Shown here one piece after another: positions 2,100 to 21,990 of a DNA stretch of 64,000 nt. Under the pieces are notes generated by a model, which was given only the letters and a program-made list of their open reading frames with translations, made no database searches and was not told the origin of the DNA. The number at the start of each line of letters is the position of its first letter. The stretch's first letter is position 1. The position numbers and the translations under genes were made by a program. Origin of the DNA: Candidatus Omnitrophota bacterium (GTDB lineage: Bacteria > Omnitrophota > Gorgyraeia > Gygaellales > Profunditerraquicolaceae); contig JBAZKC010000001.1 in the NCBI GenBank assembly GCA_041651035.1, positions 515,244-579,243 of the forward strand. The letters run 5' to 3'.

Positions 2100-3542
2100 A
2101 TGCCGAACGGTAATAACATGTTAAAGCAGCATTTGGGATTAAGCGCCATTCATTTAGAAATTGGTAAGTCACAATACTTTATATCTTCATCTAGTACTGA
2201 TGTCGATCGTGCCATTAGTTTGCTTTCCGAATTCAACAATGCTGTTTTTATAGTTGAGGATCAGAAACAGGCTGGGAATAGACTAATTGCCGAAACGGTT
2301 AATAAATTTTCTCGTGATGCATCAGGGCAGATTGTGAGAAAGGGTTTTCAATTAGATGCTAAAGAATTCATAAATGCTTCCAGTGGTCAAATAGAGATTC
2401 GTCTCGAAGAAATACTTGGTGTTTTAGAAAATGAGAGAGAAAAGTCATTGTTAGTTATTACATCTTTAGAAGAGTTTGCTAGAAATGAACGGCTGGCAAA
2501 GTTACTTCAAAAAGTTGTAAAAGCATCTTCTTTTTCTATATTGGGCATAACTACGATTGATGGGTTTCGCCAATTAGAAAAAAATCCGGAACTCGCCGGT
2601 TGCTTACAATTTATCCTTTCCGAAAAATCCCCCCGGATACATAAGCGTAGTGAATCAGTGTTGATTATAGGCGCGACTTCGTTATTTGGAAATGCGGTAT
2701 ATCAGCTTTTTAGCCGGGAATATAAGTTTGTTAGGGGGACTGGTTTTAGTAAAGCAGGTCTTTTAGGTTTTGATAAATTAGACGTTATGTCCGAGGAGGA
2801 AATTAAGGAGTATTTTGCGGTGCATCCGGCTTTTGATATTATTATCTATATTACCGGTGAAGCTGATGCGGATGTAGCTGAAAAGGAAAGAGATAGAGCT
2901 AAGGCATTAAATGTTGATGCGGTTACTATTATCGCGCGATATGCGAAAAATAACAAGTTTGTTTATATCTCTTCTGAATATGTGTTTGATGGTAGCACAT
3001 GGCCTTATGGTTCGTATTCAGAGGCTAGGCCGATCAATTATTACGGACGCACGAAATTGGAGGGGGAGGGAGTTTCTTTAAAGAATTTTCCTGATGCTTT
3101 GGTATTGCGTTTGGGTGCTCTTTACGGGTATAACAGCCCACGCGACAAGAAGACATCAGTCAGTAAGATTATTGCCAGTTTTGATAAGAACGAAGTTCTT
3201 AAGGTAGATAATATTCAAATTAAACATCCGATTTTACTCGAAGATGCTGCCAAGACACTATTAAAACTTCTTGATTATGGTGCTACCGGGATATATCAGG
3301 CCAATGGCCCAGAAGGATTAAATAAACAAGAAATGGCAAAGCAAATCGTGGAGGTGTATAGCGATGTAGCCAGCCGTACTTTTTCTTCTCCTATTGTTGG
3401 TATTGAGCAACCGGCCGCTGCAGCCAAACCTCTTAATACTCATATGGTAAATGTGGACACTCCAAGGTCTTTTAGGGAAGGGATTCGTTTTATGCTTCTA
3501 AAGCAGAAAACATCCAGCCAGAAAGACAATAATGGACATTAA
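2100..3542 (+). CDS. Two-domain protein: unknown N-terminal domain (about 190 aa) plus RmlD-like NAD(P)-dependent sugar reductase (dTDP-4-dehydrorhamnose reductase family)
   Basis: Rossmann motif IIGATSLFGNAV. YGRTK matches the RmlD Y-x3-K catalytic motif. SDR-extended fold pattern. Confidence 0.55.
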   Translation: MPNGNNMLKQHLGLSAIHLEIGKSQYFISSSSTDVDRAISLLSEFNNAVFIVEDQKQAGNRLIAETVNKFSRDASGQIVRKGFQLDAKEFINASSGQIEIRLEEILGVLENEREKSLLVITSLEEFARNERLAKLLQKVVKASSFSILGITTIDGFRQLEKNPELAGCLQFILSEKSPRIHKRSESVLIIGATSLFGNAVYQLFSREYKFVRGTGFSKAGLLGFDKLDVMSEEEIKEYFAVHPAFDIIIYITGEADADVAEKERDRAKALNVDAVTIIARYAKNNKFVYISSEYVFDGSTWPYGSYSEARPINYYGRTKLEGEGVSLKNFPDALVLRLGALYGYNSPRDKKTSVSKIIASFDKNEVLKVDNIQIKHPILLEDAAKTLLKLLDYGATGIYQANGPEGLNKQEMAKQIVEVYSDVASRTFSSPIVGIEQPAAAAKPLNTHMVNVDTPRSFREGIRFMLLKQKTSSQKDNNGH

Positions 3543-4659
3543 GAGTACTAAGTTTCTTGATCTTGATCAAGGACTAACACCGCAGAGTTTAACCTTAAGC
3601 AATAAAGATATGGATTTTTTGACCAAATTTCCCATTAAATTCATAGAGGGAAATTTTGCTAATTATATATGGGGAGGGCGTTATCTTTATGCTCTGAAGG
3701 GTATGCCCTATGATGGGAATACCCCGATAGCAGCCGAATCTTGGGAAGTCTCCGGCCATAAGAAATATTCTTCGCGTATTCTAATGCCGGATAAAAGAAT
3801 TTTTACTCTCAATGATATACTAAAAGATGAGCAATTAGCGCGGCTGATCTTGGGAGATATTGTTGTGGAGCATTTTGGGCAGGGTTTCCCCATACTTGTT
3901 AAGTTTATTGATGTGCATCAGCATATGTCAGTACATTTGCATCCTTCTCATAAAAATGCGAAGGCATTCGGAGAAGAGGACCCGGGCAAAGAAGAGATAT
4001 TTATAGTTATTGATTTACATGAAGATGCGGAGAACGTGTTATACCTAGGTTTAAAAGATAGTGTAAGCCCTAAGGATTTCGAAGCCGTTGTTAACAGGGG
4101 CGAGAATATTCTTGGTTTACTGCATAAGATCTGCGTTTCTCCGGGGGATATATTCCGCATACCTTCTGGTATTTTACATTGTTGGGCAGGGGGGGTTATT
4201 GCGGTTGAAATTGCCGAATCCAGCGATTTGACTTACCGCGTATATGATTTTCTTCGGCAAAGGCCTATGCATATTAAAAAAGGGTTGGCTTCTATTGATT
4301 ATAGATTTAACTTGAGCCCCACACTAAAAAAAGAATGTAAGGGCAAGTGGGAAACGATGTTAACTAAAGGAGTTGATTCTGTTGTAACTCGTAATGCCAT
4401 AAAGGTTGAGCGTATAAGGCTTGGTTTCGACAGCGATTCGATTAAGATTAATAACCGCGAAATATTTGAGGTATTAATGGGAATTGAGGGCGTGGTTGAG
4501 ATCACGTCTTTAAAAGATGATTGGTCTATTCACCTACATAAGGGGGTCTCGGTTCTCATTCCGGCTAGTGCCGGAGATTATCTACTCAAAGGCATTGATG
4601 AATTAAACAAAAACCGTGCACTTCGTATTAGTATGAGGATACTTGAAAGGAGCAGTTAA
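3532..4659 (+). CDS. manA: Mannose-6-phosphate isomerase, class I (cupin)
   Basis: ESWEVSGH, SVHLHP (zinc-site 'QVHP'-type) and IPSGILHCWAGGVIAVEIAESSDLTYRVYDF align with the ManA signatures ELWMGAHP / LSIQVHP / HAY..G..LEVMANSDN.LR. Confidence 0.7.
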   Translation: MDIKSTKFLDLDQGLTPQSLTLSNKDMDFLTKFPIKFIEGNFANYIWGGRYLYALKGMPYDGNTPIAAESWEVSGHKKYSSRILMPDKRIFTLNDILKDEQLARLILGDIVVEHFGQGFPILVKFIDVHQHMSVHLHPSHKNAKAFGEEDPGKEEIFIVIDLHEDAENVLYLGLKDSVSPKDFEAVVNRGENILGLLHKICVSPGDIFRIPSGILHCWAGGVIAVEIAESSDLTYRVYDFLRQRPMHIKKGLASIDYRFNLSPTLKKECKGKWETMLTKGVDSVVTRNAIKVERIRLGFDSDSIKINNREIFEVLMGIEGVVEITSLKDDWSIHLHKGVSVLIPASAGDYLLKGIDELNKNRALRISMRILERSS

Positions 4660-4663
4660 TAAT

Positions 4664-6070
4664 ATGGTAACAATGCAAGGATTGGAAAAAAGGCTTTTGA
4701 AGGAAGAATCCCGGCACTGTTCTTATGGAGATACCGCTCATTATTTAAAAGAGCCAAAAATTTTCTCTGAATGCGAGGGTTCATTTTTATACGATTGTAA
4801 CGGCATGCCATATCTAGATCTTCAAATGTGGTATTCCGCAGTAAATTTGGGCTACAAGAATAAACGAGTGAATGATACAGTCAGGTGTCAACTTGATCAT
4901 CTGCCTCAATTAGCCAGCCAGTATTTACATAGGGAGAAAATTGAACTCGCTAGTATTATGGCTAAACAAATGCAAAAATCTTTTCAAAGCAAAGGCAGGT
5001 TACATTTTAATGTAGGCGGATCCCAGGCCATCGAAGATAGCATCAAGCTTATTCGTAAGACAACAGGCAAAACGCAATTCTTTGCATTTCAGGGGGGATA
5101 TCATGGGAGGACAATTGGTGCCTCGGAGATCACATCAAGCTATCGTTATAGGAAACCCTACGGTCATTTTTCTAATAGGGCGCAATTTATTCCATATCCC
5201 TATTGTTTTCGTTGTCATTATGGTAAACAGCCTGACTCTTGTAAATATTATTGCGTAAGCCAATTCGAGAAGTTGTTTGAAACGGAGTATAATTCTATCG
5301 TCGATACCAAAACCAATGAATGCGAATTCGCGGCTTTTTATATCGAACCTATTCAGGGTACAGGCGGTTATATTATACCGCCTCCCGAGTACTTCAAGAA
5401 GATTAAGAAAATTTTAGACTATTATAAGATTTATCTTGTTGATGATGAAATGCAAATGGGTTTCTATCGAACAGGGCGATTCTGGGCACTTGAGCATTTT
5501 GGTATTAAGCCCGATGTATTAGTTTTTGGCAAGGCACTCACCAATGGCATGAATCCTTTGTCTGGCTTCTGGGCTAAAGAGGAACTTATTAAGCCAGAGG
5601 TTTTCCCTCCCGGATCAACGCACTCCACATTTTCATCTAATCCCATGGGTACTACCGCGGGGTTAGAGGTGATGAAGATACTTCAAGATAAGACATTAGC
5701 CAATCGGATAAATAGCAGCGGCAAGAAGTTCGTAAGTATGCTTAAGAAACTTCAAAAAAAATATAAAGAGATTGGTGATGTTACAGGCATAGGGTTAGCT
5801 ATCCGTCTTGAGATCTGCGAGAAAGACGGTATTACGCCGAATAGGCGATTGACAGATCAGATATTTCAAGCAGGGCTTAAGGGCGGCCTGGAATACAACG
5901 GAAAGAAATACGGTTTAGTACTGGACGTCGGGGGTTATTTTAAGAACGCCTTTACGTTGGCCCCTTCTTTTTACATCACCGAAGAAGAAATCGGAATGGC
6001 ATATAAGTTTTTAGATGAGTTATTCGGTCGTTTTACTGCTTCGAAACGCCGCCCGAAACAAAAAATATAA
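4664..6070 (+). CDS. Class III PLP-dependent aminotransferase
   Basis: GGYHGRT, LVDDEMQMGFYRTGRFWALEHFGIKPDVLVFGKAL (PLP lysine). Start moved to the ATG at 4664 (AAAGGAG 8 nt upstream); the track's 4643 start is TTG. Confidence 0.65.
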   Translation: MVTMQGLEKRLLKEESRHCSYGDTAHYLKEPKIFSECEGSFLYDCNGMPYLDLQMWYSAVNLGYKNKRVNDTVRCQLDHLPQLASQYLHREKIELASIMAKQMQKSFQSKGRLHFNVGGSQAIEDSIKLIRKTTGKTQFFAFQGGYHGRTIGASEITSSYRYRKPYGHFSNRAQFIPYPYCFRCHYGKQPDSCKYYCVSQFEKLFETEYNSIVDTKTNECEFAAFYIEPIQGTGGYIIPPPEYFKKIKKILDYYKIYLVDDEMQMGFYRTGRFWALEHFGIKPDVLVFGKALTNGMNPLSGFWAKEELIKPEVFPPGSTHSTFSSNPMGTTAGLEVMKILQDKTLANRINSSGKKFVSMLKKLQKKYKEIGDVTGIGLAIRLEICEKDGITPNRRLTDQIFQAGLKGGLEYNGKKYGLVLDVGGYFKNAFTLAPSFYITEEEIGMAYKFLDELFGRFTASKRRPKQKI

Positions 6071-6284
6071 CCAAAGAATTTACGAGCGTTTAGGCGAGGG
6101 GCCAAGCTTATATCGTAGAGGGTTCTTATCCGGAGTAAAATAATAAAAGGTGAGGTCTTAAATTCAGGCAATAGCAGTCAACGCTATTTCAGATTAAATT
6201 CTCCCTCCGTGTTTTATTTCTTGCCAGGTTGATTTTAAATATTTAGCTTTTAAATAATATAACATTAACAGGGGATTTTGACAA

Positions 6285-7733
6285 ATGGCCAAGGTTATTT
6301 TTTGCCAAAGATTTGTTTATTCCTATTTCGGCATCATGTCCATATCAGCTTTGCTAAAAAGAGAGGGGCATCAGGCAGGGCTGGTTATGGAGGCGGATAT
6401 CAAGAAAGCAGTCTTGAAAATAATTCATGCTGATCCGGAGGTAGTTATGTTTTCAACCCTTACGGCAACAGGGGATTTTGAGTGGTCGCTGGAGGTCGCC
6501 AAAGGGTTAAAACAAAAAAATAAAAACATTTTGGTGGTTTTCGGGAATTTACATCCCACCTTATTCCCGGAAGAAACGATGAGACAGGAAGCCGTGGATG
6601 TTATTTGCCGGGGGGAGGGAGAATTCCCCATGTTGGAGTTATGTAACCGGTTAGAGCGCGGGGTGAGCTATTTTGATATTCCCGGATTATGGGTTAAGTC
6701 ACCCGAAGGCATTGTCAGGAATCCTCTGGGGGCGCTCATAGAGGATTTAGACGTTTTGCCTTTTCCTGACCGCGATCTTTATCAGCAATATGGATATTTT
6801 GACAACTTAGATTCCATTGATGTGATCGCCGGTAGAGGCTGTATTTTTAGCTGTAGTTATTGTATGAATCCGGCATTAAAGGAAATATTCCGGGATAAAG
6901 GAAGATTTGTCCGTAAATTCAGCCCGTCCTATATTATCAGCGAACTGGAAGAAGTTAATAATAAGTTTAAACCCAGGTCATTTACTTTTGTTGATGAATT
7001 ATTTACGGTAAACAAGGGATGGCTTAGAGAATTTTCTGAAATGTATAAGGCGCGTATCAATTTGCCTTTCGTCTGCAATATTACCGCCGATACCATTGAC
7101 GAAGAAAGTATTTCTTGGTTAGCTAAGGCAGGAGTTTCCAGGGTATGTATGGGCGTGGAAACAGGCAATGAAGGGGTCCGTAATAAACTCCTTAATAAAC
7201 ATCTAAGCAACGCCCAGATCGAAGAGGCGGCGGCCAGGCTGCATGAGCATAACATTAAGTTTTTAACCTCAAATATTATCGGCCTGCCCGGAGAAACGGT
7301 AAAGGGCGCTTTTGAGACGATAGAATTCAATCAAAAGATAAAAACAGATTTTGTCTATTTTTCGGTATTTCAGCCCTACCCTAAACTTCCCTTAACGAAG
7401 AAAATGCAGGAGGAGGGGGTCCTTGAGCCAATACAGCCGGCGGATTTTAACACCACGTTCTTTAAGGACTCGGTTCTAAAGCAGCGCAATATTAATCAAT
7501 TGGTCAACTTGCATAAGTTCTTTTTCCTGGTTTTCAGATTCCCGTGGATAAAGCCAATTGTTAAGCTTTTAATCCATTTACCGCCCAATCGTTTCTTTGA
7601 GCAAATCTTTATTTTGAGTTATGGCTGGCTGGCCTTAAGTTGTTTTCGCAGGCATCCTCTACAACTTCTGGCCATGGGCCGCGGCAACACGAAGATCTTT
7701 TATGGCGACAAAGGAGTTGCCGGCAGCGCATAA
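6285..7733 (+). CDS. B12-binding radical SAM protein (class B radical-SAM, methyltransferase-like)
   Basis: N-terminal cobalamin-binding-like domain. CIFSCSYC matches the CX3CX2C radical SAM cluster motif. Confidence 0.65.
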   Translation: MAKVIFCQRFVYSYFGIMSISALLKREGHQAGLVMEADIKKAVLKIIHADPEVVMFSTLTATGDFEWSLEVAKGLKQKNKNILVVFGNLHPTLFPEETMRQEAVDVICRGEGEFPMLELCNRLERGVSYFDIPGLWVKSPEGIVRNPLGALIEDLDVLPFPDRDLYQQYGYFDNLDSIDVIAGRGCIFSCSYCMNPALKEIFRDKGRFVRKFSPSYIISELEEVNNKFKPRSFTFVDELFTVNKGWLREFSEMYKARINLPFVCNITADTIDEESISWLAKAGVSRVCMGVETGNEGVRNKLLNKHLSNAQIEEAAARLHEHNIKFLTSNIIGLPGETVKGAFETIEFNQKIKTDFVYFSVFQPYPKLPLTKKMQEEGVLEPIQPADFNTTFFKDSVLKQRNINQLVNLHKFFFLVFRFPWIKPIVKLLIHLPPNRFFEQIFILSYGWLALSCFRRHPLQLLAMGRGNTKIFYGDKGVAGSA

Positions 7734-7771
7734 TTTCTGGAAATCTTCCAGAATTGCTATATAATAAACCT

Positions 7772-8257
7772 ATGGCTAGTCGGTCGTCTCGAAGATCTAA
7801 AGGCGTTACGATATTTGGCATCCTGCTGATCTTGAGCTCTCTTATGCACATGCACAAGTTGCTCACAGAAGGAGCGCAGTACGCTAATATCTACAGTTAT
7901 TTGCCCGCGTGGCTGATCACAGTACGGTATTCTTTTTCCTGGTTACAAAGAATTATTGGGATCTTTACGGGATTCGGGATCTTAGCTAAGAAAGAAATCG
8001 CCCGTAAAATAGCGATCGCCATAGGGTGTTTTACTATTTTGACCGTTTACTGGAAACATCCCTATCCGGCGGTTAAGCTTCATACCCAATATTTAGAGGA
8101 ACAGTTTGGATACATCCTAGCTCAAACAGGTACAGGGGTGACATTTCCATCGATGGCCCTGTTTGCCGTTATCGCCCTGTGTATTTGCGATATTATTTTC
8201 TGGGGTATCTCTATTTATTTTCTTACCCGTCCGGCAGTCAAGAACCAATTTAAGTAG
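7772..8257 (+). CDS. Small polytopic membrane protein, unknown function
   Basis: Four hydrophobic helices. The track ORF starts at 7640 and overlaps the previous gene out of frame; the internal ATG at 7772 (MASRSS…) is the more plausible start. Confidence 0.35.
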   Translation: MASRSSRRSKGVTIFGILLILSSLMHMHKLLTEGAQYANIYSYLPAWLITVRYSFSWLQRIIGIFTGFGILAKKEIARKIAIAIGCFTILTVYWKHPYPAVKLHTQYLEEQFGYILAQTGTGVTFPSMALFAVIALCICDIIFWGISIYFLTRPAVKNQFK

Positions 8258-8262
8258 GATTC

Positions 8263-8901
8263 ATGAGCGCACCCTATTCTCTAAAGGGGTCTCATTACCG
8301 CAGCGAATTTCTTTATACTGCCCTAACCCTGTTAAAACTCGGCCCAGGCTATCATCTTCGTTACCGGATCGCCGCGCGATATATCCATCCCAAAGAATCT
8401 GTTATTGATGTTTGTTCCGGATCCGGAGGCCTTAAATATTTTATTCCCAAAGACTGCCCGTATACTGCCGTTGAAGCGAGCCCGGAATTCAGCGCTATTC
8501 TTCAGAAGAAAGGCCTCAACCATATTACCTGTGATCTCCACGCAGGGCTGCCGCATCCTGCCTTATCATCCGACGTTATAGTAATGCTTATTTCCCTTTG
8601 TCAATTCCGTAACGCCTCGGCAGGCTTTTTGCTGGAGAGTTTTAAGAAAATGGCAAAGCGTGTTGTCATTATAGAAGATGTTTTATCCTGTCCGAGGAGC
8701 GAAAGATCTTTGGTTTATCGTGCCATTAATTATCTTTGCGCAACTGATTATTGCCTGCCTTTTTCTTTGTATACGCGTTTGGAATTCACGGAGTTAATGC
8801 GAAACCATGGCTATGCATGCGAGGACGCCGGCGGCCGGTATATGGTTGGATCATACGGTTATGACCCAGAACAGGGGGAAATTAGCTATCAGAAAGAATA
8901 A
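8263..8901 (+). CDS. Class I SAM-dependent methyltransferase
   Basis: Motif I VIDVCSGSGG; acidic motif II region. Confidence 0.5.
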   Translation: MSAPYSLKGSHYRSEFLYTALTLLKLGPGYHLRYRIAARYIHPKESVIDVCSGSGGLKYFIPKDCPYTAVEASPEFSAILQKKGLNHITCDLHAGLPHPALSSDVIVMLISLCQFRNASAGFLLESFKKMAKRVVIIEDVLSCPRSERSLVYRAINYLCATDYCLPFSLYTRLEFTELMRNHGYACEDAGGRYMVGSYGYDPEQGEISYQKE

Positions 8902-8905
8902 TACT

Positions 8906-10006
8906 ATGAATATACCCTGGGCGCGGCCGTATTTCTGGGGTAGGGAACAAGAGTTTGTGGCTGACGCGTTAAATTCATCCTGGATTTCCAGCGGCCCGTA
9001 TGTCGGAAGATTTGAAAAGGAATTTGCCGATTATCACGGCGCGCGGTTTTGCATTACCACGTCGAGCGGGACCAGCGCGCTGCATTTGGCTCTTTTGGCT
9101 ATAGGTGTAGGCCCGGGAGATGAAGTTGTTGTGCCGGGCTTTACATTTATCGCTCCGGTCAATATGATCATTGCTGTAGGTGCTAAGCCGGCCTACGCTG
9201 ATATCGATCCGGATACCTGGTGTGTTGATACGGCATGCGTCGAGCGGAATATCTCAGCCAAGACAAAAGCGATTATGGCGGTCCATCCCTACGGGAACGT
9301 CTGTGATATGGCAGCTCTGCGGCGTTTAGCTGATCGGCGCGAACTTTATTTGGTTGAGGACTCCGCTGAGGCGTTATTTTCAAGATACCGCGGTAAATTA
9401 GCCGGGACATTCGGAGATATCGGCTGTTTTAGTTTTCAGGCAACCAAGGCCATCACTACCGGAGAAGGCGGTTGCGTTATTACATCAAATAAGGAATTAT
9501 CTTCCAGGATGCGTCTTATCCGCGACCACGGCATGTCTGGGCCGCGGAAGTATTGGCACGATATCTTAGGATACAATTTCCGGTTGACTAATATACAGGC
9601 GGCGTTGGGGTGCGCGCAGTTTAAAAACGCGTCGAAGATCATATCAGCCAAACGTAAAATATACTCTCTCTACCTGCGGCATCTTAAGAATGAGGAAGGG
9701 ATCAGATTACAATTCATTAAGCCTAAGGTCGAGCCTGTATTCTGGTGCGTAGCCGTTGAAATAGACCCCGCGGTTTTTGGCGTAAGCAGAGATTCGCTTA
9801 TGAGGCGTCTGTTATTATCCGGGATCGAGACCCGCCCGGGATTCTATCCCGCAAGCCTTATGCCTTTTTACCGCGCGCCAGCTTTACCTGTGTCTGAACA
9901 TATCAGCGCCAGGGCTATAAGCCTTCCCTCGTTTCTGGCGTTAACGGAGCCCCAGATCAGATACGTATGCAGCCGCTTAAAGAAATTAAGGAAAAAGGGC
10001 GTATGA
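8906..10006 (+). CDS. DegT/DnrJ/EryC1/StrS-family sugar aminotransferase (PLP-dependent)
   Basis: MNIPWARPYFWGREQEFVADAL…, FSFQATKAIT (PLP lysine), DHG…NFRL. Start at ATG 8906, directly after the upstream stop. Confidence 0.75.
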   Translation: MNIPWARPYFWGREQEFVADALNSSWISSGPYVGRFEKEFADYHGARFCITTSSGTSALHLALLAIGVGPGDEVVVPGFTFIAPVNMIIAVGAKPAYADIDPDTWCVDTACVERNISAKTKAIMAVHPYGNVCDMAALRRLADRRELYLVEDSAEALFSRYRGKLAGTFGDIGCFSFQATKAITTGEGGCVITSNKELSSRMRLIRDHGMSGPRKYWHDILGYNFRLTNIQAALGCAQFKNASKIISAKRKIYSLYLRHLKNEEGIRLQFIKPKVEPVFWCVAVEIDPAVFGVSRDSLMRRLLLSGIETRPGFYPASLMPFYRAPALPVSEHISARAISLPSFLALTEPQIRYVCSRLKKLRKKGV

Positions 10007-12513: not shown

Positions 12514-12520
12514 GCCAAGG

Positions 12521-13662: not shown

Positions 13663-13670
13663 AATCCCCC

Positions 13671-14612
13671 CTAGTTTTCTTTATCAACTTTACGCTTATC
13701 TTTTACGTAATTACTTTTCTCAAGGCTCTTGGCGAGAGATTTTAATTCCGCCCCGATCTCCCCGATCTGGGCAACATGGGTAATCTTACGGAACTCATTT
13801 GTTACTACTCCGATAGACACAGACAGAAGCGGTATTTTTCGTTCTTTGCCTTGCCTGTCGAAGGCAAAGATATAGCCTTTTTCCCGGTCAGTCTCATTAT
13901 AAAAGGTAGGGGAGGTCTTCTCGAAATCGGCGATTATCGTCTCGCAGATATTGTCTACGAATTTGGGGGTGGTGATGACCACAAAATCATCTCCGCCGAT
14001 ATGGCCGATGAAATCTTCCGGGCTGCCGGCTTGCTGCGTCGAGCGTATTAATATGCGGGCAGTCTCGCGGATAACTTCATCCCCGTGCTCAAAGCCGTAT
14101 TTATCATTATACGCCTTGAATTTATCCAGATCTACGTAGCAGACGGCAAGGTCGGACTTATTCTCTATTCTGCGCGAAAGCTCGGTTAGGATAGAAACAT
14201 TGCCGGGCAGGCGCGTTAACGGGTTAGCCTCAAGGTCTCTTTCCGTGCGCCGCAAGCTCATACGGATGCGGGCCAGTAATTCTTTGGGTTCAAAAGGTTT
14301 TACCACATAGTCATCGGCTCCCGCGTCAATGCCGTCTACTTTATCGCTAATATCCCCTTTTCCGGTAACCATGATTATAGGCAGGTGCCTAAGCAGCAGG
14401 TCTTTTTTAACTGTCCTGCAGACCTGCCTGCCGTCGATCTTGGGTATCTTATAATCCAGCAATACCAGATTAAGAGGTTTTGAGTTAATGATCTTTAAGG
14501 CTTCTTCTCCGTCGCCGGCCTCGAAGATCTCGTAGTTTTCTTCCGAAAGCGTGAGTTTCAATATGTCCCGTATGTCGGGGTCATCATCAACAATAAGTAT
14601 TCGTATGGCCAT
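13671..14612 (-). CDS. Response regulator with GGDEF-family output domain (variant GGDDF motif)
   Basis: REC domain (DDDPDIRD…D…K) plus a GGDEF-type domain with HIGGDDFVVI. The E-to-D change at motif position 4 makes cyclase activity uncertain. Confidence 0.7.
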   Translation of the reverse strand: MAIRILIVDDDPDIRDILKLTLSEENYEIFEAGDGEEALKIINSKPLNLVLLDYKIPKIDGRQVCRTVKKDLLLRHLPIIMVTGKGDISDKVDGIDAGADDYVVKPFEPKELLARIRMSLRRTERDLEANPLTRLPGNVSILTELSRRIENKSDLAVCYVDLDKFKAYNDKYGFEHGDEVIRETARILIRSTQQAGSPEDFIGHIGGDDFVVITTPKFVDNICETIIADFEKTSPTFYNETDREKGYIFAFDRQGKERKIPLLSVSIGVVTNEFRKITHVAQIGEIGAELKSLAKSLEKSNYVKDKRKVDKEN

Positions 14613-14617
14613 AGTAT

Positions 14618-16099
14618 TTATATAGGTTGCGGTATAGTAAAGCTAAAGGTTGATCCGGAGTTGAATTTGCTTTTTACCCAGATTTTTCCGTCGTGCGCTT
14701 CGATGATATGTTTTACCACGGCTAATCCCAGGCCCGTACCCTTTGCTTTTTGGTTGATAAGGTTATCCACACGGTAGAATTCTTCAAATATCTTTTCTTG
14801 GGCTTCTTCCGGTATGCCGCATCCGGTATCAGTGATATCTATCTGCACCCCTTTCTCCGCCTTATGCGCCGATACGGTGATCTTTCCTGCCGGAGGAGTA
14901 AATTTCATAGCGTTACCGATGAGGTTTATAAAGACGCGTTCGATCTGGCTGCGGTCCGCGGATATGGTATTAGCGTCGGCGCTAATATTATAACCAAATT
15001 CTATCTGCCGTTCTTTTAATTGCATCGATAATAGATCAGAAACATTTTCAATGATGTTTTTTAGTTCCAGGGATTCTTTTTTCATGACCACCCTGCCGCT
15101 TTCGATGCGCGCTATATCCAGAAGGTCGTTTACCAGGTGCACCAGCTCGTCGCTATGCCTGTTGATCTTATCCAGGCGTTCCCTGATCTCGGAAGGGATA
15201 TCGCCTAACTTTCCGGTAAGCAGGATCGAGGCATACCCTTTTATGGACGTAAGAGGGGTCCTTAGTTCATGCGATACACTGGAAACAAAATCGGTCTTCC
15301 GGTTATTTATTATTTTTACTTCATTTAACGCGTTTGTTAAATCGCGGGTCCTTTCTTCAACCCTTTTCTCCAGAGCCTGCTGTGTGCGCCAGGTTTTTTC
15401 AAACAGCCGCGCGTTTTCCAACGCCTGGCCCAGCTGGTTAGCCAAAATAGTGATTAGCTCTTCGTCGCCCTCGTTTATTAAGGTGTCTATGTTTTGCGTG
15501 CCTACAAAAAGGAAACCTTTCTCTCCTTCTTTAGGCAGGACAGGGGAGATGATAAAAGAAACAACCTTAAATACCCGGTCCTTGGCTTCTTTAAACACAG
15601 CATCAATTGGCAAGGATATCGAGGACACGGCTTTCTCGGCCGTTATTAGATCCAGGTATTTGTTTTTGTTCAGTCCTACGTAAGACTGGATTGTTTCAGT
15701 TTCATCTTGTGAATAACCTATATACATCTGGGGCAGGAATTTCTTTTCTACCTCGTTCCATAAGAAAACGCAGGCTTTCTCAAATCCCAGTTCATCTAAG
15801 TCCGCACCCTGCATCATTTTGAAGATCTGGTTTTCTTCCAGGGTTGTGCTTATCGTCCGTGATAATCTCTGCAGAGTGTAGAGCCCGGTTAATTTTTTAT
15901 CCAGGTCCTCTTGAGTCTTACTTAATTCCATGTCCGTGCGCACGATAAGCTTGGCTTGCTCGTCCATTTCATCTACTGATTTCTTCAGGCTATTAAACGC
16001 TGCCCGCAGCTGCCGTATTGTTTCTATCTTATAGGTAAGCATTATAGCCAGCGCGGCTATTGCCAGAAGGCCGATCAATCCGAGTATCCCTGTCAGCAT
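14618..16099 (-). CDS. Sensor histidine kinase (TM + GAF-like + HisKA + HATPase_c)
   Basis: H-box HELRTPLTSIKGY. G-boxes DTGCGIP and GTGLGLAVV. N-terminal TM helix. Confidence 0.75.
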   Translation of the reverse strand: MLTGILGLIGLLAIAALAIMLTYKIETIRQLRAAFNSLKKSVDEMDEQAKLIVRTDMELSKTQEDLDKKLTGLYTLQRLSRTISTTLEENQIFKMMQGADLDELGFEKACVFLWNEVEKKFLPQMYIGYSQDETETIQSYVGLNKNKYLDLITAEKAVSSISLPIDAVFKEAKDRVFKVVSFIISPVLPKEGEKGFLFVGTQNIDTLINEGDEELITILANQLGQALENARLFEKTWRTQQALEKRVEERTRDLTNALNEVKIINNRKTDFVSSVSHELRTPLTSIKGYASILLTGKLGDIPSEIRERLDKINRHSDELVHLVNDLLDIARIESGRVVMKKESLELKNIIENVSDLLSMQLKERQIEFGYNISADANTISADRSQIERVFINLIGNAMKFTPPAGKITVSAHKAEKGVQIDITDTGCGIPEEAQEKIFEEFYRVDNLINQKAKGTGLGLAVVKHIIEAHDGKIWVKSKFNSGSTFSFTIPQPI

Positions 16100-16100
16100 A

Positions 16101-17306
16101 TTAATAAGCCCCCATTCCTAAAATAGCGATTGTCTGGTTATGGAAATATGCCCTGCCCTGGTAATTAACGGCTTTTAAAGGGGCTTCTTCCCCATAGGTA
16201 TATATCCCGATTATAGGGGTATCTTTGCCCAGCCTGTCTTTGATTATTTCCAGTTCTTTATTTGCCTGCCTGCCCAGCAGTATATACCTTGAGACAGAAT
16301 CAAATACGAATACAAAATTACTCGCGTGTCCCCGCAGTCCGTTTTTTACTTCTTCTGCCGCCTGCGCGGTCGCAGCCAGGCAGGATTCTTTTGTGCCGAT
16401 CATTAATCTTATCAGGCTTCCTTCAGGCACGTCGCTTTGGAACACCAAAGCGCCGCTGTCCTCCATAGAGATGATATTCCTTAAAAGGTATTCTTCTTCT
16501 CCTTGAAGATATATGCCTATCGGGTATAATATGGATATGCGCTTTAGTTCTTTTCTTAATTGAACCAGGTCGGAGGCGAAATAATCTTTATAGATTTCCG
16601 CGGCGGGGGCTTTATCTATTTCATATACGATGTTCCCGCTCGACTTGGTTACGTAGCGAGGTTTGCCCAAAGGCTTCCATCCGTGTTTAACCCCTAAGCC
16701 AAAATTTAGCTTGCCTCCCCAGAGCACCCCGCAAGCCGCGTCGCTGAATACTTCGTCGTTAAAGTAGACGGATGTCTTTTTAAAAGCAAGGTTATCCGAG
16801 GCTGCCGCGCCTGCCAAAGGGAAGCTTATTCCCAATTTTTCCTGCAGGCCGTAGAGGAAGCTGGATTCATCGCGGAGGAGGCCGTCGGAGAATATCACGC
16901 TGAGATCCCTGCGGATATTCTTGAAGCCATACAATAGTCTTTCGCCTAATTCTCCTCCCGCGGAAACGGCTGGCCTGGCGCTTATTCCTTTGACATAGGC
17001 AGTATTGAAATATATCCCTTCCGGGAAACTTAAAAGCATGACTGCCAGGCCATGTTTGAATACGCCTGTATTAGATATGATCCCTAAACCGGTGCAGCCG
17101 ACTATTCTTGCCGATCCCAATAAGCTGGAGGCTATTTTTAAAAAAGCCGGATGGGCGGCGAATTCTATTGAACTAAAGACTATCGCTAAGTCTATTTTTT
17201 CCGTATGTATGTTTGATTTTGCCTGCATAACCGCGGCCTGGGTTGCCCGAAAGACATCTTTTTCCGTGCTTAAACCTATGCCTATCTGTATGCCCATTTT
17301 TGCCAA
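16101..17306 (-). CDS. FIST-domain sensory protein
   Basis: FIST_N/FIST_C-like pattern (…VFSSIEF…GCTGLG…; …AAASD…VLWGG…). Translationally adjacent to the HK and RR genes, as in an operon. Confidence 0.55.
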   Translation of the reverse strand: MAKMGIQIGIGLSTEKDVFRATQAAVMQAKSNIHTEKIDLAIVFSSIEFAAHPAFLKIASSLLGSARIVGCTGLGIISNTGVFKHGLAVMLLSFPEGIYFNTAYVKGISARPAVSAGGELGERLLYGFKNIRRDLSVIFSDGLLRDESSFLYGLQEKLGISFPLAGAAASDNLAFKKTSVYFNDEVFSDAACGVLWGGKLNFGLGVKHGWKPLGKPRYVTKSSGNIVYEIDKAPAAEIYKDYFASDLVQLRKELKRISILYPIGIYLQGEEEYLLRNIISMEDSGALVFQSDVPEGSLIRLMIGTKESCLAATAQAAEEVKNGLRGHASNFVFVFDSVSRYILLGRQANKELEIIKDRLGKDTPIIGIYTYGEEAPLKAVNYQGRAYFHNQTIAILGMGAY

Positions 17307-17457: not shown

Positions 17458-17535
17458 GGCCCCATCGTCTAGCCTGGTCTAGGACGTCAGGTTCTCAGCC
17501 TGTAAACACCGGTTCAAATCCGGTTGGGGCTACCA
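17458..17535 (+). tRNA. tRNA-Glu (anticodon CTC), CCA encoded
   Basis: Architecture close to E. coli tRNA-Glu (…TCGTCTAG…GGAC…). Anticodon loop TTCTCAG. T-arm ACCGG-TTCAAAT-CCGGT. Acceptor GGCCCCA/TGGGGCT with a G1-U72 wobble and a U27-U43 mismatch. Confidence 0.65.
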
Positions 17536-17612
17536 AATCAGATTTTTGGGTGGAGTTTGGTTGCAACTGTTTGAAGAGTAAAAAGGTTAAGCGGCAATCT
17601 TAACAGTATTCG

Positions 17613-18953: not shown

Positions 18954-19034
18954 TTTTTCCTTTTAAATTTCCTTGTTTAGACTATAATTTAAACAAGGAC
19001 TATATATAGAATGTAATCTTATCATATTATTATA

Positions 19035-19679: not shown

Positions 19680-19725
19680 CAAAAATCGTGTCCGGCTCTT
19701 GAGAGGCAGATGATATTAATTAAAA

Positions 19726-21990
19726 ATGGCTAACGCATTATTTTCTAATAATCTTTGGGTAAAGTTGGAAAAATACTTAGGGATCTTTTCCGTCGTAGCG
19801 GCATTCTGCCTGATTCTTGTTATGGCCCATCGCTCGATCTTTGATTTGGATATATGGCTGCATCTTAAGGCAGGCGAATTTATTGTTCAGAATAAGCTTG
19901 TTCCTTCCGCCGATATTTTTTCTTTTACTATGCAGGGAAAACCCTGGGTTGATCATTCCTGGTTTTTCCAGGTAATTTCTTATTTAGTCCATTCTAAATG
20001 GCAGGCGGACGGCCTGATCGTTTTAGGGTGCGTACCTATAATATTATCGTTCCTGGTTTTATTCCTGATGGGCAATGCCATGATAAGGTCATACCTGGAA
20101 GTAGCGGTATTAATTACGGCTGCCGCTTTAGCCTCGGTGACCAGGTTTAATATCCGCCCTGATATTTTCAGTTTATTTTTCTTCGCGATATATTTATACA
20201 TATTAAGATTACATATTAACAAGAGGTTGATCTGGTTTCTTGTGCCGGTACAGGCCCTTTGGGTCAACTTCCATGGTTATTTCTTTCTTGGGCCGCTGCT
20301 GGTCGCGTTATTTATAACTGCTGAATTCTTAAGGCGCAGGCTTAAGTTCCTGCCGATAGCCTGGAGGGAAGAATTCGCTTTAAGCCAGGAGGCATACCGG
20401 CGCTTAAAAGTATTATTTATCTTCGTAGTATTGGCTTGTTTTCTAAACCCCCGTGGTTACCAGGGGGCGCTCTATCCTTTTTTTGTATTTAAAGAATTGC
20501 TATCAGGCAGGGTCCAGATATTCTTGAAGTATATACAGGAATTACAGCCCACCCTTGGGCTGGGGCGCGTCCTCGGCAGTTATTATATAATGATCGTTCT
20601 TTGTTTTCTATTAATGGCGGCTAACTACAAGCGGCTAAAGATAGTAGAGATTATTCTTGCGCTATTTTTCTTTTTCTTTTCATTATCGCTGCGCAACGCG
20701 GCATTTTTTCTATTTGTAACTTATATGATCATCGCTTCTTATTTTGGAGATTACTTAAGCAAGATAACTGCGTATCTTAGATCACAGTCCCTTTCCAGGC
20801 AGAGATTGTTTATTTTATTCAAATGCGCGGCCTCAGCCATATTCATAATCTGTTTGGTGCAGGCGATAGATAGAAAACTAGGTTCGAATTATTATGATTT
20901 TGACAGCCAGGAATTTAAGAGCGGCCTTATGGGCATAGACAAAAGGGTTTATCCTAAAGGAGGCGTAGATTTTATTTCCGAAAATAATATTCCTGCTGGC
21001 ATGTTTAACGATTTTAATTCTGGCGCGTATCTTATTGGCAATACTTATCCTGAGAGAAAAGTATTCATTGACGGCCGCACTGAACTTTACGGCCCCGAGT
21101 TCTTCGCGGAGTATATGAAGATGCTAAAAGGAGATATTTCCAGTTTTGAAAGGATAACCGGTAAATACCGCCTTAATGCCATGTTATTCAGCACGGCACT
21201 TGCTTCTTTGCCGGATATCATAGGGTATATTTATAAAAACCCTCACTGGAAACTGGTTTTTCTCGACGAATCAGCCGTGGTTTTCTTAAAAGATGTCCCC
21301 CAGAGCCAGGAACTTATAAAACGGTATAGGGTCGATTTTAAAAAATACACGGTTCCTAAAATAGATGTAAAGAGTTTACGCGTGAGGATGGTGTATCCCG
21401 CGCCTTTTATTAAGCGCGCCGCGTTGTTTAATATCTTTAAAGAAGATGAGTTAGCGGCTTTAGAATGCAAAGAGGCCTTGCGTATAATGCCTAACTGCGC
21501 TGAAGCGTATCATCTTTTGGGTAAGATGTATTTGCGTAAAGGCTTATATCAAGACGCTCTGGATAACCTGCATTCGTCGCTGGTACTCCTGCCCGGCAAT
21601 GTAGAGGCGCTCCTGGACCTGGGTGTTTGTTTTATGGAGCTGAAAGAAGATAAGTTGGCAATAAGCAGTTTTAAAAAGGCAATAAGGATCCGGAATAATT
21701 ACGCGCCTGCTTATTACCGCCTGGGCTGTATATATTTGACTCTAAACAATGATAGCGAGGCTATACATTTATTTAAGAAGGCAATAAGATACGAATCAGA
21801 AGAGCCGCGCTATCATTATAAATTGGGCCAGGCTTTATATGAAAAGGCTAAAAGGCTAAAAGGCGGCTCATATCTGGCGCAGGCAAGGCTGGAATTGGCT
21901 AAAGCCCGGGAATTAAATATGGGGTATCAAGACAAAGAGTTGGACAAGGAAATAGAAAGCAAGTTAGAAGAGATATCAGAAGGCAAATAA
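19726..21990 (+). CDS. Polytopic membrane protein (about 11-13 TM) with C-terminal TPR repeats; possible GT-C-fold (PMT/TMTC-like) glycosyltransferase
   Basis: N-terminal 520 aa is highly hydrophobic, with an FDLDIW…PWVDHSW first loop. C-terminal 170 aa has at least 4 TPR units (AEAYHLLGKMYLRKGLYQDALDNL…). Confidence 0.45.
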   Translation: MANALFSNNLWVKLEKYLGIFSVVAAFCLILVMAHRSIFDLDIWLHLKAGEFIVQNKLVPSADIFSFTMQGKPWVDHSWFFQVISYLVHSKWQADGLIVLGCVPIILSFLVLFLMGNAMIRSYLEVAVLITAAALASVTRFNIRPDIFSLFFFAIYLYILRLHINKRLIWFLVPVQALWVNFHGYFFLGPLLVALFITAEFLRRRLKFLPIAWREEFALSQEAYRRLKVLFIFVVLACFLNPRGYQGALYPFFVFKELLSGRVQIFLKYIQELQPTLGLGRVLGSYYIMIVLCFLLMAANYKRLKIVEIILALFFFFFSLSLRNAAFFLFVTYMIIASYFGDYLSKITAYLRSQSLSRQRLFILFKCAASAIFIICLVQAIDRKLGSNYYDFDSQEFKSGLMGIDKRVYPKGGVDFISENNIPAGMFNDFNSGAYLIGNTYPERKVFIDGRTELYGPEFFAEYMKMLKGDISSFERITGKYRLNAMLFSTALASLPDIIGYIYKNPHWKLVFLDESAVVFLKDVPQSQELIKRYRVDFKKYTVPKIDVKSLRVRMVYPAPFIKRAALFNIFKEDELAALECKEALRIMPNCAEAYHLLGKMYLRKGLYQDALDNLHSSLVLLPGNVEALLDLGVCFMELKEDKLAISSFKKAIRIRNNYAPAYYRLGCIYLTLNNDSEAIHLFKKAIRYESEEPRYHYKLGQALYEKAKRLKGGSYLAQARLELAKARELNMGYQDKELDKEIESKLEEISEGK

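Follow-up and report, generated by a model that had tools for sequence, protein, structure and literature searches.

A predicted GT-C glycosyltransferase at the head of a Tad pilus operon in Candidatus Omnitrophota

Gene content of the locus

The window, by which we mean the whole 64-kb stretch of DNA analysed here, comes from a Candidatus Omnitrophota genome. Near its start lies a cluster of sugar-modification genes (2100-11969), whose content and coordinates agree with a preliminary description of this DNA and whose domain calls stand with small corrections:

2100-3542, +, SDR with an RmlD_sub_bind match (1.4e-36) and a 186-aa unannotated N-terminal extension
3532-4659, +, class I PMI (TIGR00218, 117.2 bits against a cutoff of 116.2)
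4643-6070, +, class III aminotransferase (Aminotran_3, AT3; 5.7e-73)
6285-7733, +, B12-binding and Radical_SAM protein (B12-rSAM; Pfam/NCBIfam)
7775-8257, +, conserved 4-TM protein of ~160 aa, overlooked in the preliminary description
8263-8901, +, SAM MTase (weak Methyltransf_23 match, 26.9 bits against a cutoff of 27)
8807-10006, +, DegT aminotransferase, perosamine-synthase-like (DegT 6e-117)
9967/10003-10701, +, soluble Dpm1-like GT2 (GT2 9e-27; begun at residue 13 in the public annotation, giving 232 aa)
10698-11969, +, sugar 3-C-methyltransferase (Methyltransf_13/23/14)

The RmlD-like reductase is an SDR with the RmlD fold, to which MAT2B-type SDRs are closer than true RmlD. The proposed Dpm1-like character of the GT2 was borne out by its best solved relative, the Dol-P-Man synthase of P. 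furiosus (5mlz), which matches over the whole catalytic domain at 3.7e-25, and the C-methyltransferase is indeed TylC3/TcaB9-like (PDB relative at 4.6e-55). The DegT protein matches a GDP-perosamine synthase-like PDB relative at 8e-86. Six of these genes (6285..11969: rSAM, 4-TM protein, MTase, DegT, GT2, and 3-C-MTase) recur together as a module at three other loci (L084, L085, and L087), while the RmlD-like, PMI, and AT3 genes (2100..6070) give way to others next to it in L084 and L087. Conservation as a unit is confined to the 6285-11969 half of the cluster, and the remainder is variable. The module probably makes a polyprenyl phosphate-linked, C-methylated 4-amino-6-deoxyhexose, a sugar whose identity we infer.

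This module recalls the ArnB-ArnC-(ArnD)-ArnE/F-ArnT pathway in that a GT2 of the Dpm1/ArnC kind and a small multi-TM protein are encoded next to its DegT gene, and in L084 it is preceded by a Polysacc_deac_1 (ArnD-family) gene. However, its DegT protein resembles GDP-perosamine synthase more than ArnB, its GT2 lacks the TM helices of ArnC and falls far short of the ArnC cutoff (61.9 against 529 bits), C-methyltransferase and B12-rSAM genes are additional, and ArnA and ArnT orthologs are absent.

The sugar cluster and the gene for a 754-aa polytopic protein are set apart by 7.7 kb containing eight unrelated genes, of which six have the opposite orientation. The features from here through the Tad pilus locus are as follows:

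13671..17306, -, FIST sensor, histidine kinase (HK), and response-regulator-GGDEF (RR) genes (Pfam), divergent and upstream of the GT-C/Tad block
19726..21990, +, predicted GT-C-fold glycosyltransferase of the inner membrane, 754 aa (AF2, Foldseek, residue conservation)
22056..22298, +, 80-aa 2-TM protein (orf80), the first conserved gene 3' of the GT-C gene
22319..28396, +, first block of Tad machinery (Pfam), consisting of the next five entries
22319-23287, +, PpiC-type PPIase (Pfam)
23288-24190, +, RcpC/CpaB (Pfam)
24201-25802, +, secretin with a C-terminal TonB_C (Pfam)
25809-27980, +, ParA/TadZ-CpaF fusion ATPase (Pfam)
28055-28396, +, DUF192 (Pfam)
29173..31128, +, conserved 651-aa Tad-locus protein, HTH-like at its N-terminus and Pro-rich in the middle
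31402..31920, +, three short pilins of Flp type (62, 49, and 54 aa), processing motifs [GA]Q-x3-EY
31938..33326, +, four long pilin-like proteins of 107-113 aa whose N-termini are Flp-type, the proposed acceptors
33338..39192, +, remainder of the Tad locus, comprising two unannotated proteins (320 and 763 aa) and the TadB-like and TadC-like proteins below
37450-38307, +, TadB-like (T2SSF domain)
38338-39192, +, TadC-like (T2SSF domain)

The Flp paralogs with Ser/Thr-rich tails noted previously lie among seven Flp/class-III-signal pilin-like ORFs (31402-33326). The four long ones have weak Flp_Fap and Class_IIIsignal matches and C-terminal tails of 32-44% Ser+Thr. A pattern of three short and several long pilins is also found in L001, L004, L010, L014, L015, and L018, and long pilins with tails of 24-44% Ser+Thr recur across Tad-linked loci. 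The 651-aa protein has no Pfam match and has homologs in six Tad-linked loci; judged by eye from the sequences, a 298-aa neighbour in L018 looks related at the N-terminus.

Predicted fold and conserved residues of the 754-aa protein

As the preliminary description had it, the 754-aa protein is polytopic with C-terminal TPRs: about 11 hydrophobic TM helices span residues 1-385, the periplasmic α/β domain 386-560, and the TPR domain 560-754. Two AF2 models were obtained (pLDDT 90.9 and pTM 0.86; pLDDT 90.2 and pTM 0.89). When the TPR domain was left out of the query, the 15 Foldseek-PDB matches at E≤1e-3 were all GT-C enzymes (query-normalised TM 0.43-0.59), the GT-C matches including AglB, STT3A/B, DPY19, PglB, AftA, and ArnT (E 2e-8 to 8e-5), and no non-GT-C fold fell below E=0.09 among the matches listed. 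Oligosaccharyltransferases (OSTs) and DPY19 ranked on top, and the STT3 matches were full-length in structure comparison.

The first periplasmic loop contains an acidic D-x-D-x-W-x-H run that is at least 96% conserved; a predicted GT-C fold with a conserved acidic loop motif is what the preliminary description had called for. Across 103 sequences from all clades, D40, D42, W44, H46, D63, R140, R144, N181, and H183, and likewise E272, R323, D449, G450, R451, and E453, are conserved at ≥96%, and positive-inside loop charges put the conserved polar and charged residues in the periplasm. Candidate catalytic or donor-binding residues are D40, D42, H46, D63, R140, R144, N181, H183, E272, R323, D449, R451, and E453. 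From these models, the protein is very probably a glycosyltransferase of the GT-C type using a lipid-linked sugar.

Its placement among known families is another matter. Searches with the membrane part matched nothing in Pfam, NCBIfam, or the PDB sequences, and we detected no sequence-level link from the protein to any characterised GT-C enzyme, so we infer donor and acceptor from fold and architecture only. TMTC1-4 and PMT proteins (GT39) are GT-C enzymes that O-glycosylate Ser/Thr from polyprenyl-P monosaccharides, and TMTCs also bear C-terminal TPRs. The previously suggested PMT/TMTC-type membership was nevertheless not upheld, as no family member tested matched PMT, PMT_2, DUF1736, or DUF2723 in Pfam, the 754-aa protein has no MIR domain, and PMT1/2 structures are missing among the fold matches listed. 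Membership in PMT, TMTC, or OST families was rejected on the lack of Pfam matches, MIR, and WWDYG.

The best solved-structure fold matches are STT3, AglB, and PglB (E 2e-8 to 1.6e-5, query-normalised TM 0.45-0.59), which share with the 754-aa protein a polytopic core and a C-terminal periplasmic or luminal domain, and the TIXE/SVSE loop motif of OSTs may have an analogue in its I-Q-E272 element. OSTs, however, have 13 TM helices rather than ~11, and they lack the TPR arm. An AglB/STT3-like N-oligosaccharyltransferase acting at N-x-S/T sequons of archaeal-type (class III signal) pilins would also fit the proposed archaeal-pilus origin of Tad pili (PMC10710030), the requirement of archaeal type IV filament subunits for glycosylation in assembly (PMC4471445), and the single N-x-T sequon in each long pilin. 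We consider this reading very improbable: WWDYG was not found, the equivalent region being N-D-F-N-S-G-A-Y, there is no STT3 Pfam match, genes for oligosaccharide-PP-lipid assembly are absent nearby, and one sequon per 60-residue tail of 35-40% Ser/Thr is about what chance would give (composition-based estimate ~1.3).

In architecture the protein resembles human TMEM260, a protein O-mannosyltransferase of the DUF2723 family reported to have 11 TMH at 24-415, a Rossmann-like domain on the luminal side at 416-564, and TPRs at 565-706; its TM1-2 loop contains D52 and H67, and its α/β domain the catalytic D441 (preprint 10.64898/2026.03.17.711096). Its TPR arm is reported to grip the extended acceptor polypeptide while the α/β-domain Asp activates the acceptor Ser/Thr (10.64898/2026.03.17.711096). 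The 754-aa protein is similar in domain order and sizes, and in each of the two a conserved Asp/His occupies the TM1-TM2 loop and a further conserved Asp the α/β domain.

Linkage to the Tad pilus and distribution of the family

Ten of the 11 informative relatives (≥44% identity) share the order GT-C, orf80, PpiC, RcpC, secretin, TadZ-CpaF, DUF192, and pilins, with the first Tad block ordered identically in L001, L004-L006, L008, L010-L012, L014, and L015. The small orf80 is kept in nine Tad-linked loci at 40-81% identity, and the 65-bp gap between it and the GT-C gene carries an RBS (AAGGAGG) and nothing resembling a terminator hairpin. In L018 (40% identity, a separate clade), the GT-C gene is placed on the opposite strand, flanked by DUF192 and the pilin array. 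These gene orders support linkage of the GT-C gene with the Tad pilus in the window's lineage, where it is the first gene of the Tad pilus operon. The FIST/HK/RR genes upstream, kept in 10-11 loci, are a possible pilus regulator. As both flanks are syntenic in the window's clade, FIST/HK/RR included, adjacency could reflect inherited gene order, and the Tad-linked copies make up a single clade, which means that the observations are not independent.

The family is far larger than its Tad-linked part, with 3,958 clusters at E≤1e-30, named members found Omnitrophota-wide, and a public annotation of "TPR protein" only. At 35-41% identity, 67 of 68 loci have no Tad genes within 10 kb. The unlinked homologs occupy a conserved housekeeping block (PGK-TIM-SecG-ABC-GT-C-nucleotidyltransferase-FabV-ACP-SMC), often as tandem duplicates adjoining a sugar-1-P nucleotidyltransferase, and one clade member (L002/L016) is relocated beside ribosomal-protein and arginine-biosynthesis genes. 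In V. archaeovorus LiM, whose Tad locus lies at 12-30 kb (PMC10066038), the homolog is at ~896 kb, some 870 kb away.

These settings would suit a housekeeping envelope glycosyltransferase with a general, phylum-wide task, whose substrates would be numerous proteins of the periplasm or outer membrane, or else a lipid or glycan (lipid A, for instance, as with ArnT), and whose Tad position would reflect inherited gene order rather than specificity for pilins. The size of the family, the identity of the catalytic residues in all clades, and the presence of ArnT and AftA, with their non-protein acceptors, among the fold matches are in keeping with this general role, which we regard as a serious but less favoured alternative. 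TPR and α/β periplasmic modules are, however, protein-acceptor devices in known GT-Cs (TMTC, TMEM260), Tad linkage recurs in the second, different arrangement of L018, and the gene, on the same strand as the Tad genes, precedes them by 65 bp without an intervening terminator. A general role would, moreover, be compatible with pilins as one substrate.

The protein might instead be a non-enzymatic Tad assembly factor, with its periplasmic TPRs acting like TadD/PilF/PilW in the assembly of the secretin or pilus and the polytopic domain as an anchor. Its TPR region weakly matches PilW and Tgl, one source labels a homolog "Tfp pilus assembly protein PilF", and we saw no separate TadD-like TPR lipoprotein in the Tad locus. 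Such a role is hard to reconcile with polar and charged residues that hardly vary over 103 sequences in the membrane-periplasm loops and α/β domain, with a fold specifically of GT-C enzymes, with TPR-reduced variants (~2 repeats, P0074) that remain Tad-linked, or with the lack of Tad linkage in most of the family, and we think it highly unlikely.

Relationship of the sugar module to the GT-C

The preliminary description joined the sugar cluster and the 754-aa protein in one system, whereby 2100-11969 makes the sugar, the GT2 loads it onto polyprenyl phosphate, and the GT-C transfers it to pilins. A polyprenyl phosphate sugar from the module would need some GT-C-type user, since a soluble Dpm1-like GT2 implies a periplasmic consumer of that type, and no GT-C other than the 754-aa protein was seen in the 64-kb window. 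The very close relative L085 keeps the module, FIST, HK, and RR in the same order, an N_methyl pilin-like gene follows the module in L087, and the module's 4-TM protein aligns end-to-end but weakly (hhalign 15.8%, E 0.0016) with a small 4-TM protein encoded directly upstream of the GT-C gene in 10 related loci.

Comparative genomics nevertheless does not support the pairing. Beyond the window's closest relatives, none of 83 loci has sugar-module genes near a GT-C homolog, and the co-occurrence in L085 is inherited local synteny. In other genomes, polysaccharide clusters harbour the GT2/C-MTase/DegT/MTase module together with different polytopic membrane proteins: in L088 the module sits within a NeuB/CMP-sugar/capsule cluster followed by its own 599-aa 11-TM protein, 65 kb from the TPR-GT-C of that genome, and in L089 it is accompanied by a GT87 GT-C. 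A recombinase flanking the module in L084 suggests mobility. With unrelated, mostly opposite-strand genes intervening in the window and the RmlD-like, PMI, and AT3 genes not kept with the module, we find it unlikely that the neighbouring module supplies the donor, and the complete system improbable.

A possible role in pilin glycosylation

Pilin modification by a polytopic membrane glycosyltransferase has precedent in P. aeruginosa TfpW, which adds D-arabinofuranose, its precursor being proposed as lipid-carrier-built, and which requires a GtrA-like small membrane protein (preprint 10.1101/2020.04.19.049825). The small 4-TM ORF directly upstream of the GT-C gene in 10 related loci is a further likeness; TfpW, by contrast, acts on type IVa pilins, has Emb-like motifs, and has no TPR arm, whereas the 754-aa gene is Tad (type IVc)-linked. 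The Caulobacter Tad pilus, the only one solved at high resolution, has no glycan density (PMC10710030).

By analogy with TMEM260, we hypothesize that the GT-C would take a polyprenyl-phosphate sugar at the periplasmic face, the ~11 TM helices forming a site for the lipid-linked donor with a pocket of loop-1 D40/D42/H46 together with R144, N181/H183, E272, and R323. The sugar would pass to Ser/Thr of an unfolded protein segment gripped by the TPR and α/β domains, a segment-holding part that contains the invariant D449-G-R-x-E453 motif. That the acceptor is a protein is, on this analogy, somewhat favoured; that it is a pilin is a more tentative proposal, which the position of the gene at the head of the Tad operon suggests, as the enzyme may sugar-coat Ser/Thr-rich pilins. 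The likeliest acceptors would be the four long pilin-like proteins of Flp type (31938-33326), in their disordered tails rich in Ser/Thr.

More generally, the 754-aa protein belongs to a large and previously unrecognised family of predicted GT-C proteins in Omnitrophota. The best overall explanation, to which we give a probability of roughly 0.4, is that a member of this family, placed at the head of the Tad operon, may glycosylate the tails of the long pilins.

A predicted GT-C fold in the 754-aa protein

The 754-aa protein (19726-21990, + strand), encoded in a Candidatus Omnitrophota genome, is 100% identical to a public entry named "tetratricopeptide repeat protein", and its only profile matches were to TPRs: residues 1-560 had no match in Pfam (E≤10), NCBIfam, a phmmer search against the PDB, or two PDB profile searches. 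Its full-length AlphaFold2 model, built from a 45-sequence alignment (pLDDT 90.9, pTM 0.86), matched STT3 subunits in Foldseek-PDB at E of about 1e-7 over about 700 aligned columns. Because TPR matches crowded that list, residues 1-575 were re-modelled with AlphaFold2 (pLDDT 90.2, pTM 0.89), and all 15 Foldseek-PDB matches at E≤1e-3 were GT-C glycosyltransferases, namely AglB, STT3A/B, yeast STT3, DPY19, PglB, AftA, and ArnT (E 2e-8 to 8e-5; query-normalised TM 0.43 to 0.59). Weaker matches were to AftB, ALG6, and a GPI mannosyltransferase, and no other fold fell below E=0.09 among the matches listed.

Alignments place a near-invariant D40-x-D42-x-W44-x-H46 directly after TM1 and D63 further along the first extracytoplasmic loop, while R140/R144, N181/H183, E272, and R323 are also conserved and a D449-G-R-x-E453 motif lies in the periplasmic α/β domain. 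Key residues are ≥96% conserved across 103 sequences representing every clade, with D449 invariant, and loop charges (positive-inside rule) put the conserved residues on the periplasmic side. The preliminary description had made its assignment depend on a GT-C fold and an acidic loop motif; the polytopic core is predicted to have this fold, conserved acidic residues are present in the first extracytoplasmic loop, and the stated ground for refutation therefore falls away. Based on these models and alignments, we put the probability that the 754-aa protein is a GT-C glycosyltransferase at roughly 85%. The putative enzyme may use a polyprenyl-phosphate sugar, and the Dpm1-like GT2 encoded in the window is a sign only that such donors may be made.

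Comparison with known GT-C types

The narrower proposal of a PMT/TMTC-type enzyme did not survive comparison. Pfam profiles for PMT, PMT_2, DUF1736, MIR, STT3, and DUF2723 matched neither the 754-aa protein nor 20 other family members (thresholds of E≤10 or E≤0.1), and PMT1/2 were absent among the Foldseek matches listed for the residue 1-575 model. Unlike PMT (GT39), the protein has neither a PMT profile match nor MIR domains; it shares C-terminal TPRs with the TMTC type but not the PMT_2/DUF1736 membrane domain. It is likewise distinguished from STT3, AglB, and PglB, giving no STT3 profile match and lacking their WWDYG motif, as there is no WWD among the invariant residues and the region reads N428-D-F-N-S-G-A-Y435. 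An N-glycosylation (OST) reading was rejected on the absence of WWDYG and on the N-x-S/T sequons of the pilins, which occur at about the frequency expected by chance.

Of the architectures described, that of human TMEM260 comes closest: a 2026 preprint (10.64898/2026.03.17.711096) reports 11 TMHs (24-415) followed by a Rossmann-like luminal domain (416-564) and then TPRs (565-706). In that account the TM1-TM2 loop carries D52 and H67, the α/β domain supplies the catalytic base, D441, and extended acceptor peptide is bound by the TPR arm. The likeness is drawn from this preprint description: the secondary-structure order and domain boundaries of our model agree with TMEM260 as described; DUF2723, the profile of the TMEM260 family, matched no member tested. 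Judging from the predicted structure, the 754-aa protein and its relatives very probably constitute a new, unannotated GT-C family, which may be built like TMEM260. Protein glycosyltransferases of GT-C type that bear TPRs, and membrane glycosyltransferases specific to pilins, have precedents; what is new is the GT-C family described here, and Tad pili as its putative target.

An exhaustive HMMER search at E≤1e-30 recovered 3,958 clusters (50% identity) of this family, and a scan of GTDB species genomes at least 544 relatives. By label, the 83 loci we retrieved (L001 and following) are overwhelmingly from Omnitrophota, among them the complete genome of Ca. Velamenicoccus archaeovorus, with some from Planctomycetales or Margulisiibacteriota. 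The only source names seen were "tetratricopeptide repeat protein", "hypothetical protein", and "Tfp pilus assembly protein PilF". Near-invariance of the candidate catalytic residues makes a TadD/PilF-like scaffolding role improbable.

Linkage to the Tad pilus locus

Downstream of the GT-C gene lies a complete Tad/Flp (type IVc) pilus locus, in which Pfam and pilin motifs identified RcpC/CpaB, a secretin, TadZ and CpaF ATPases, TadB/TadC, and Flp-type pilins; no prepilin peptidase was identified within the 64-kb window. Two of its components are unusual for Tad systems and conserved in related loci: a single gene for a 723-aa fusion of a ParA/TadZ-like ATPase with a CpaF/T2SSE ATPase (25809-27980), and a secretin with a C-terminal TonB_C domain (24201-25802). 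An IS200/Y1-type transposase gene (28477-28959, -) sits inside the locus, between DUF192 and a 651-aa conserved protein.

The GT-C gene is linked to the Tad operon in the lineage of the window. Between it and the next gene are 65 bp, which contain an AAGGAGG RBS but nothing resembling a terminator hairpin, and the gene order of the window is common to 10 of the 11 informative genomes at ≥44% GT-C identity. This order consists of FIST, histidine kinase, and RR-GGDEF genes divergent upstream, followed by GT-C, an 80-aa 2-TM protein, PpiC, RcpC, the secretin with TonB_C, the TadZ-CpaF fusion, DUF192, a conserved unknown protein, and pilins. In the exception (L002/L016) the GT-C gene has moved and adjoins rplM/rpsI and arginine-biosynthesis genes. 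The divergent trio, a FIST sensor, histidine kinase, and response-regulator-GGDEF (13671-17306, -), precedes the GT-C/Tad block in 10-11 genomes (L004-L014), and its conservation suggests c-di-GMP control of the pilus.

The Tad-linked copies at ≥44% identity form one clade with synteny on both flanks, and Tad adjacency alone could therefore be inherited gene order. A locus from another clade (L018, 40% identity), in which GT-C and a small upstream 4-TM ORF interrupt a Tad locus in reverse orientation, with DUF192 on one side and the pilin array on the other, provides a partly independent case of linkage. Among the loci at 35-41% identity, 67 of 68 have no Tad genes within 10 kb of GT-C, the non-Tad context being a PGK-TIM-SecG-ABC transporter-GT-C(×1-2)-nucleotidyltransferase-FabV-ACP-SMC block. 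Hidden linkage was sought in intermediate tree clades, where L025 and L032 proved to lie in this housekeeping block and L074 to have no Tad genes. In V. archaeovorus LiM the GT-C homolog lies at about 896 kb (L043), and the Tad locus at 12-30 kb (PMC10066038). The main alternative is a glycosyltransferase acting generally on the envelope or on proteins, with its place beside Tad a matter of inherited synteny, which we hold to be possible if short of probable, with the housekeeping context of most relatives in its favor and L018 standing on the other side.

Tandem copies of the GT-C+TPR gene are frequent within the housekeeping block (102 family ORFs across the 83 loci; e.g. L003, L021-L023, L028, L036, L039, L045-L047, L050, L055, L056, L063, L066, L076, L078, and others), the two copies falling into separate subclades and both keeping the candidate catalytic residues. 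Directly upstream of the GT-C gene, and often overlapping it, 10 loci of three clades (L001, L007, L008, L010-L013, L015, L018, and L074; e.g. L011:9531-9977) carry a conserved ORF (129-148 aa) that has no Pfam match and is predicted to span the membrane four times. In the window this ORF is missing from the site, which is taken up by a 214-aa DUF374-like gene (19035-19679). The analogy of GtrA and ArnE/F suggests that the ORF could encode a flippase or subunit.

Pilins as candidate acceptors

Three of the pilins encoded in the window are short and Flp-type; four further pilin-like proteins measure 107-113 aa and have tails of 32-44% Ser+Thr. This pattern, of about three short Flp pilins and several pilin-like proteins of 100-128 aa, recurs in Tad-linked loci, where the tails of the long proteins are 24-44% S+T. 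Canonical Tad pilins are usually described as minimal helices of 40-60 residues, and the one solved structure, the Caulobacter Tad pilus, has no glycan density (PMC10710030). The nearest functional precedent is P. aeruginosa TfpW, a membrane glycosyltransferase that transfers D-arabinofuranose onto pilins and needs a small GtrA-like membrane protein to do so (10.1101/2020.04.19.049825). An enzyme able to grasp extended polypeptide could plausibly act on such Ser/Thr-rich tails, and glycosylation of these pilins by the GT-C is a possibility that we advance tentatively. The fuller proposal is that the protein is the first case of a dedicated Tad (type IVc) pilus glycosylation enzyme, belonging to a phylum-wide family of about 4,000 clusters at 50% identity, built like TMEM260 from a TM core, an α/β 'palm', and TPR 'fingers', and O-glycosylating the disordered Ser/Thr tails of the unusually long Flp-type pilins; we consider this, as a whole, less probable than not.

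The neighboring sugar cluster

ORF listing and Pfam/NCBIfam scans upheld the gene calls of the preliminary description at 2100-11969, and added a conserved 4-TM protein that it had missed.

Genes of the sugar cluster (coordinates, strand, product)
2100-3542, +, RmlD_sub_bind SDR (Pfam) with an unannotated 186-aa N-terminal extension
3532-4659, +, class I PMI, just passing TIGR00218 (117.2 vs 116.2 bits)
4643-6070, +, class III aminotransferase
6285-7733, +, B12-binding radical-SAM enzyme
7775-8257, +, conserved 4-TM protein of roughly 160 aa
8263-8901, +, SAM methyltransferase (weak)
8807-10006, +, DegT aminotransferase, closest to GDP-perosamine synthase (8e-86)
9967-10701, +, GT2 (PF00535 at 9e-27)
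10698-11969, +, C-methyltransferase, Methyltransf_13/23/14 (PF08421, PF13489, PF08484)

The GT2 had been called Dpm1-like, in agreement with its best PDB match, the P. furiosus Dol-P-Man synthase (5mlz, 3.7e-25, residues 14-222), followed by ArnC and GtrB, a similarity that takes in the interface-helix region; JGI names its homologs 'dolichol-phosphate mannosyltransferase', and all NCBIfam equivalogs score far below cutoff (e.g. ArnC, 61.9 vs 529). No hydrophobic helix that could serve as a membrane anchor is predicted in it, so that a separate partner would be needed, as is the case for human DPM1. The TylC3-like identity of the C-methyltransferase was borne out by full-length matches to D-mycarose 3-C-methyltransferase and TcaB9 (4rv9 at 4.6e-55; TcaB9 at 3.5e-44, residues 4-416) and by its Zn-binding N-domain, SAM MTase domain, and C-terminal Methyltransf_14. 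For the supposed RmlD-like reductase, the SDR with RmlD_sub_bind is confirmed, but its closest solved relative is MAT2B (5e-29) rather than RmlD (8e-16). MAT2B is the regulatory β subunit of methionine adenosyltransferase; the extension of this SDR has no Pfam match, and the cluster also holds several SAM-dependent enzymes. Neither a nucleotidyltransferase nor a 4,6-dehydratase was found within the window. It is reasonable to infer that the module product is a C-methylated 4-amino-6-deoxyhexose of GDP-mannose lineage carried on polyprenyl phosphate.

A metagenome scan with the GT2 gave 3 loci, and module context was taken instead from a homologous-protein search and contig look-ups (sugar-module loci L084, L085, L087, L088, and L089). 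The radical-SAM enzyme, 4-TM protein, methyltransferase, DegT, GT2, and C-methyltransferase form a conserved block in L084, L085, and L087, while the RmlD-like, PMI, and class III aminotransferase genes are replaced by others in L084 and L087; in L084 the block has an ArnD-family deacetylase upstream and a recombinase downstream. A GT2/C-methyltransferase/DegT/methyltransferase core occurs inside a NeuB/CMP-sugar/capsule cluster of another Omnitrophota genome (L088), 65 kb from the TPR-GT-C of the same genome, and with a GT87 GT-C in a Kofleriaceae polysaccharide cluster (L089). Directly following the core in L088, within this nonulosonic-acid/capsule cluster, is an unannotated 599-aa protein (L088:13874-15673) whose approximately 11 TM helices are followed by a soluble C-terminal domain; it may be a further unrecognised GT-C-type enzyme, and no homolog was found in the window or the 83 loci.

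The sugar cluster and the GT-C had been proposed to form one system. In the window they are 7.7 kb apart, separated by eight unrelated genes of which six are on the opposite strand, including those for desulfoferrodoxin, RR-GGDEF, a histidine kinase, a FIST protein, and an Lgt-PSD fusion. The last joins prolipoprotein diacylglyceryl transferase (Lgt) to phosphatidylserine decarboxylase in 446 aa (17613-18953, -). No sugar-module gene lies near a TPR-GT-C homolog in any of the 83 loci, and elsewhere the module has other membrane partners, which argues against a single system. One weak hint of a link comes from sequence comparison of the module 4-TM protein with the small ORF that precedes GT-C elsewhere: the two aligned end to end with an hhalign probability of 15.8%, BLAST was marginal, and an HMM search gave no match. 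That the neighboring cluster supplies the GT-C donor we regard as doubtful.

A giant ORF downstream of the Tad genes

Directly downstream of TadB/TadC, an ORF of at least 8,100 aa (39697-63999, +) remains open at the window end, its N-terminal region containing a TM segment and a Peptidase_C39 domain (3.6e-10). Omnitrophota are known for giant proteins, and that this one adjoins the Tad locus may be relevant; the sugar module of L087, too, directly follows an 18,951-aa gene. The near-palindromic 11-mer GGGACTGTCCC has seven sites in 39240-40355, six exact and one with a single mismatch, giving 13 matches over both strands vs 0.39 expected. Of the seven, three fall among AATGTCCAATCTA repeats in the intergenic region that precedes the giant ORF; the other four are within the 5' end of the ORF, where they encode G-T-V-P.

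Implications

If the 754-aa protein is a GT-C glycosyltransferase, a large unannotated family would join the superfamily, and thousands of database entries now named for their tetratricopeptide repeats would be open to re-annotation. TMEM260 is a disease-linked human enzyme, of which this family may be a distant bacterial counterpart; it could thereby inform how TPR-bearing GT-Cs choose their protein acceptors. The Omnitrophota of the fuller proposal would be ultra-small and probably predatory or parasitic. For the Tad pili of the phylum, a role in attaching to prey or hosts has been proposed (PMC10066038). Were the pilins its acceptors, pilin glycosylation would extend to Tad pili, and the enzyme would provide a first handle on surface glycosylation in this uncultivated phylum.
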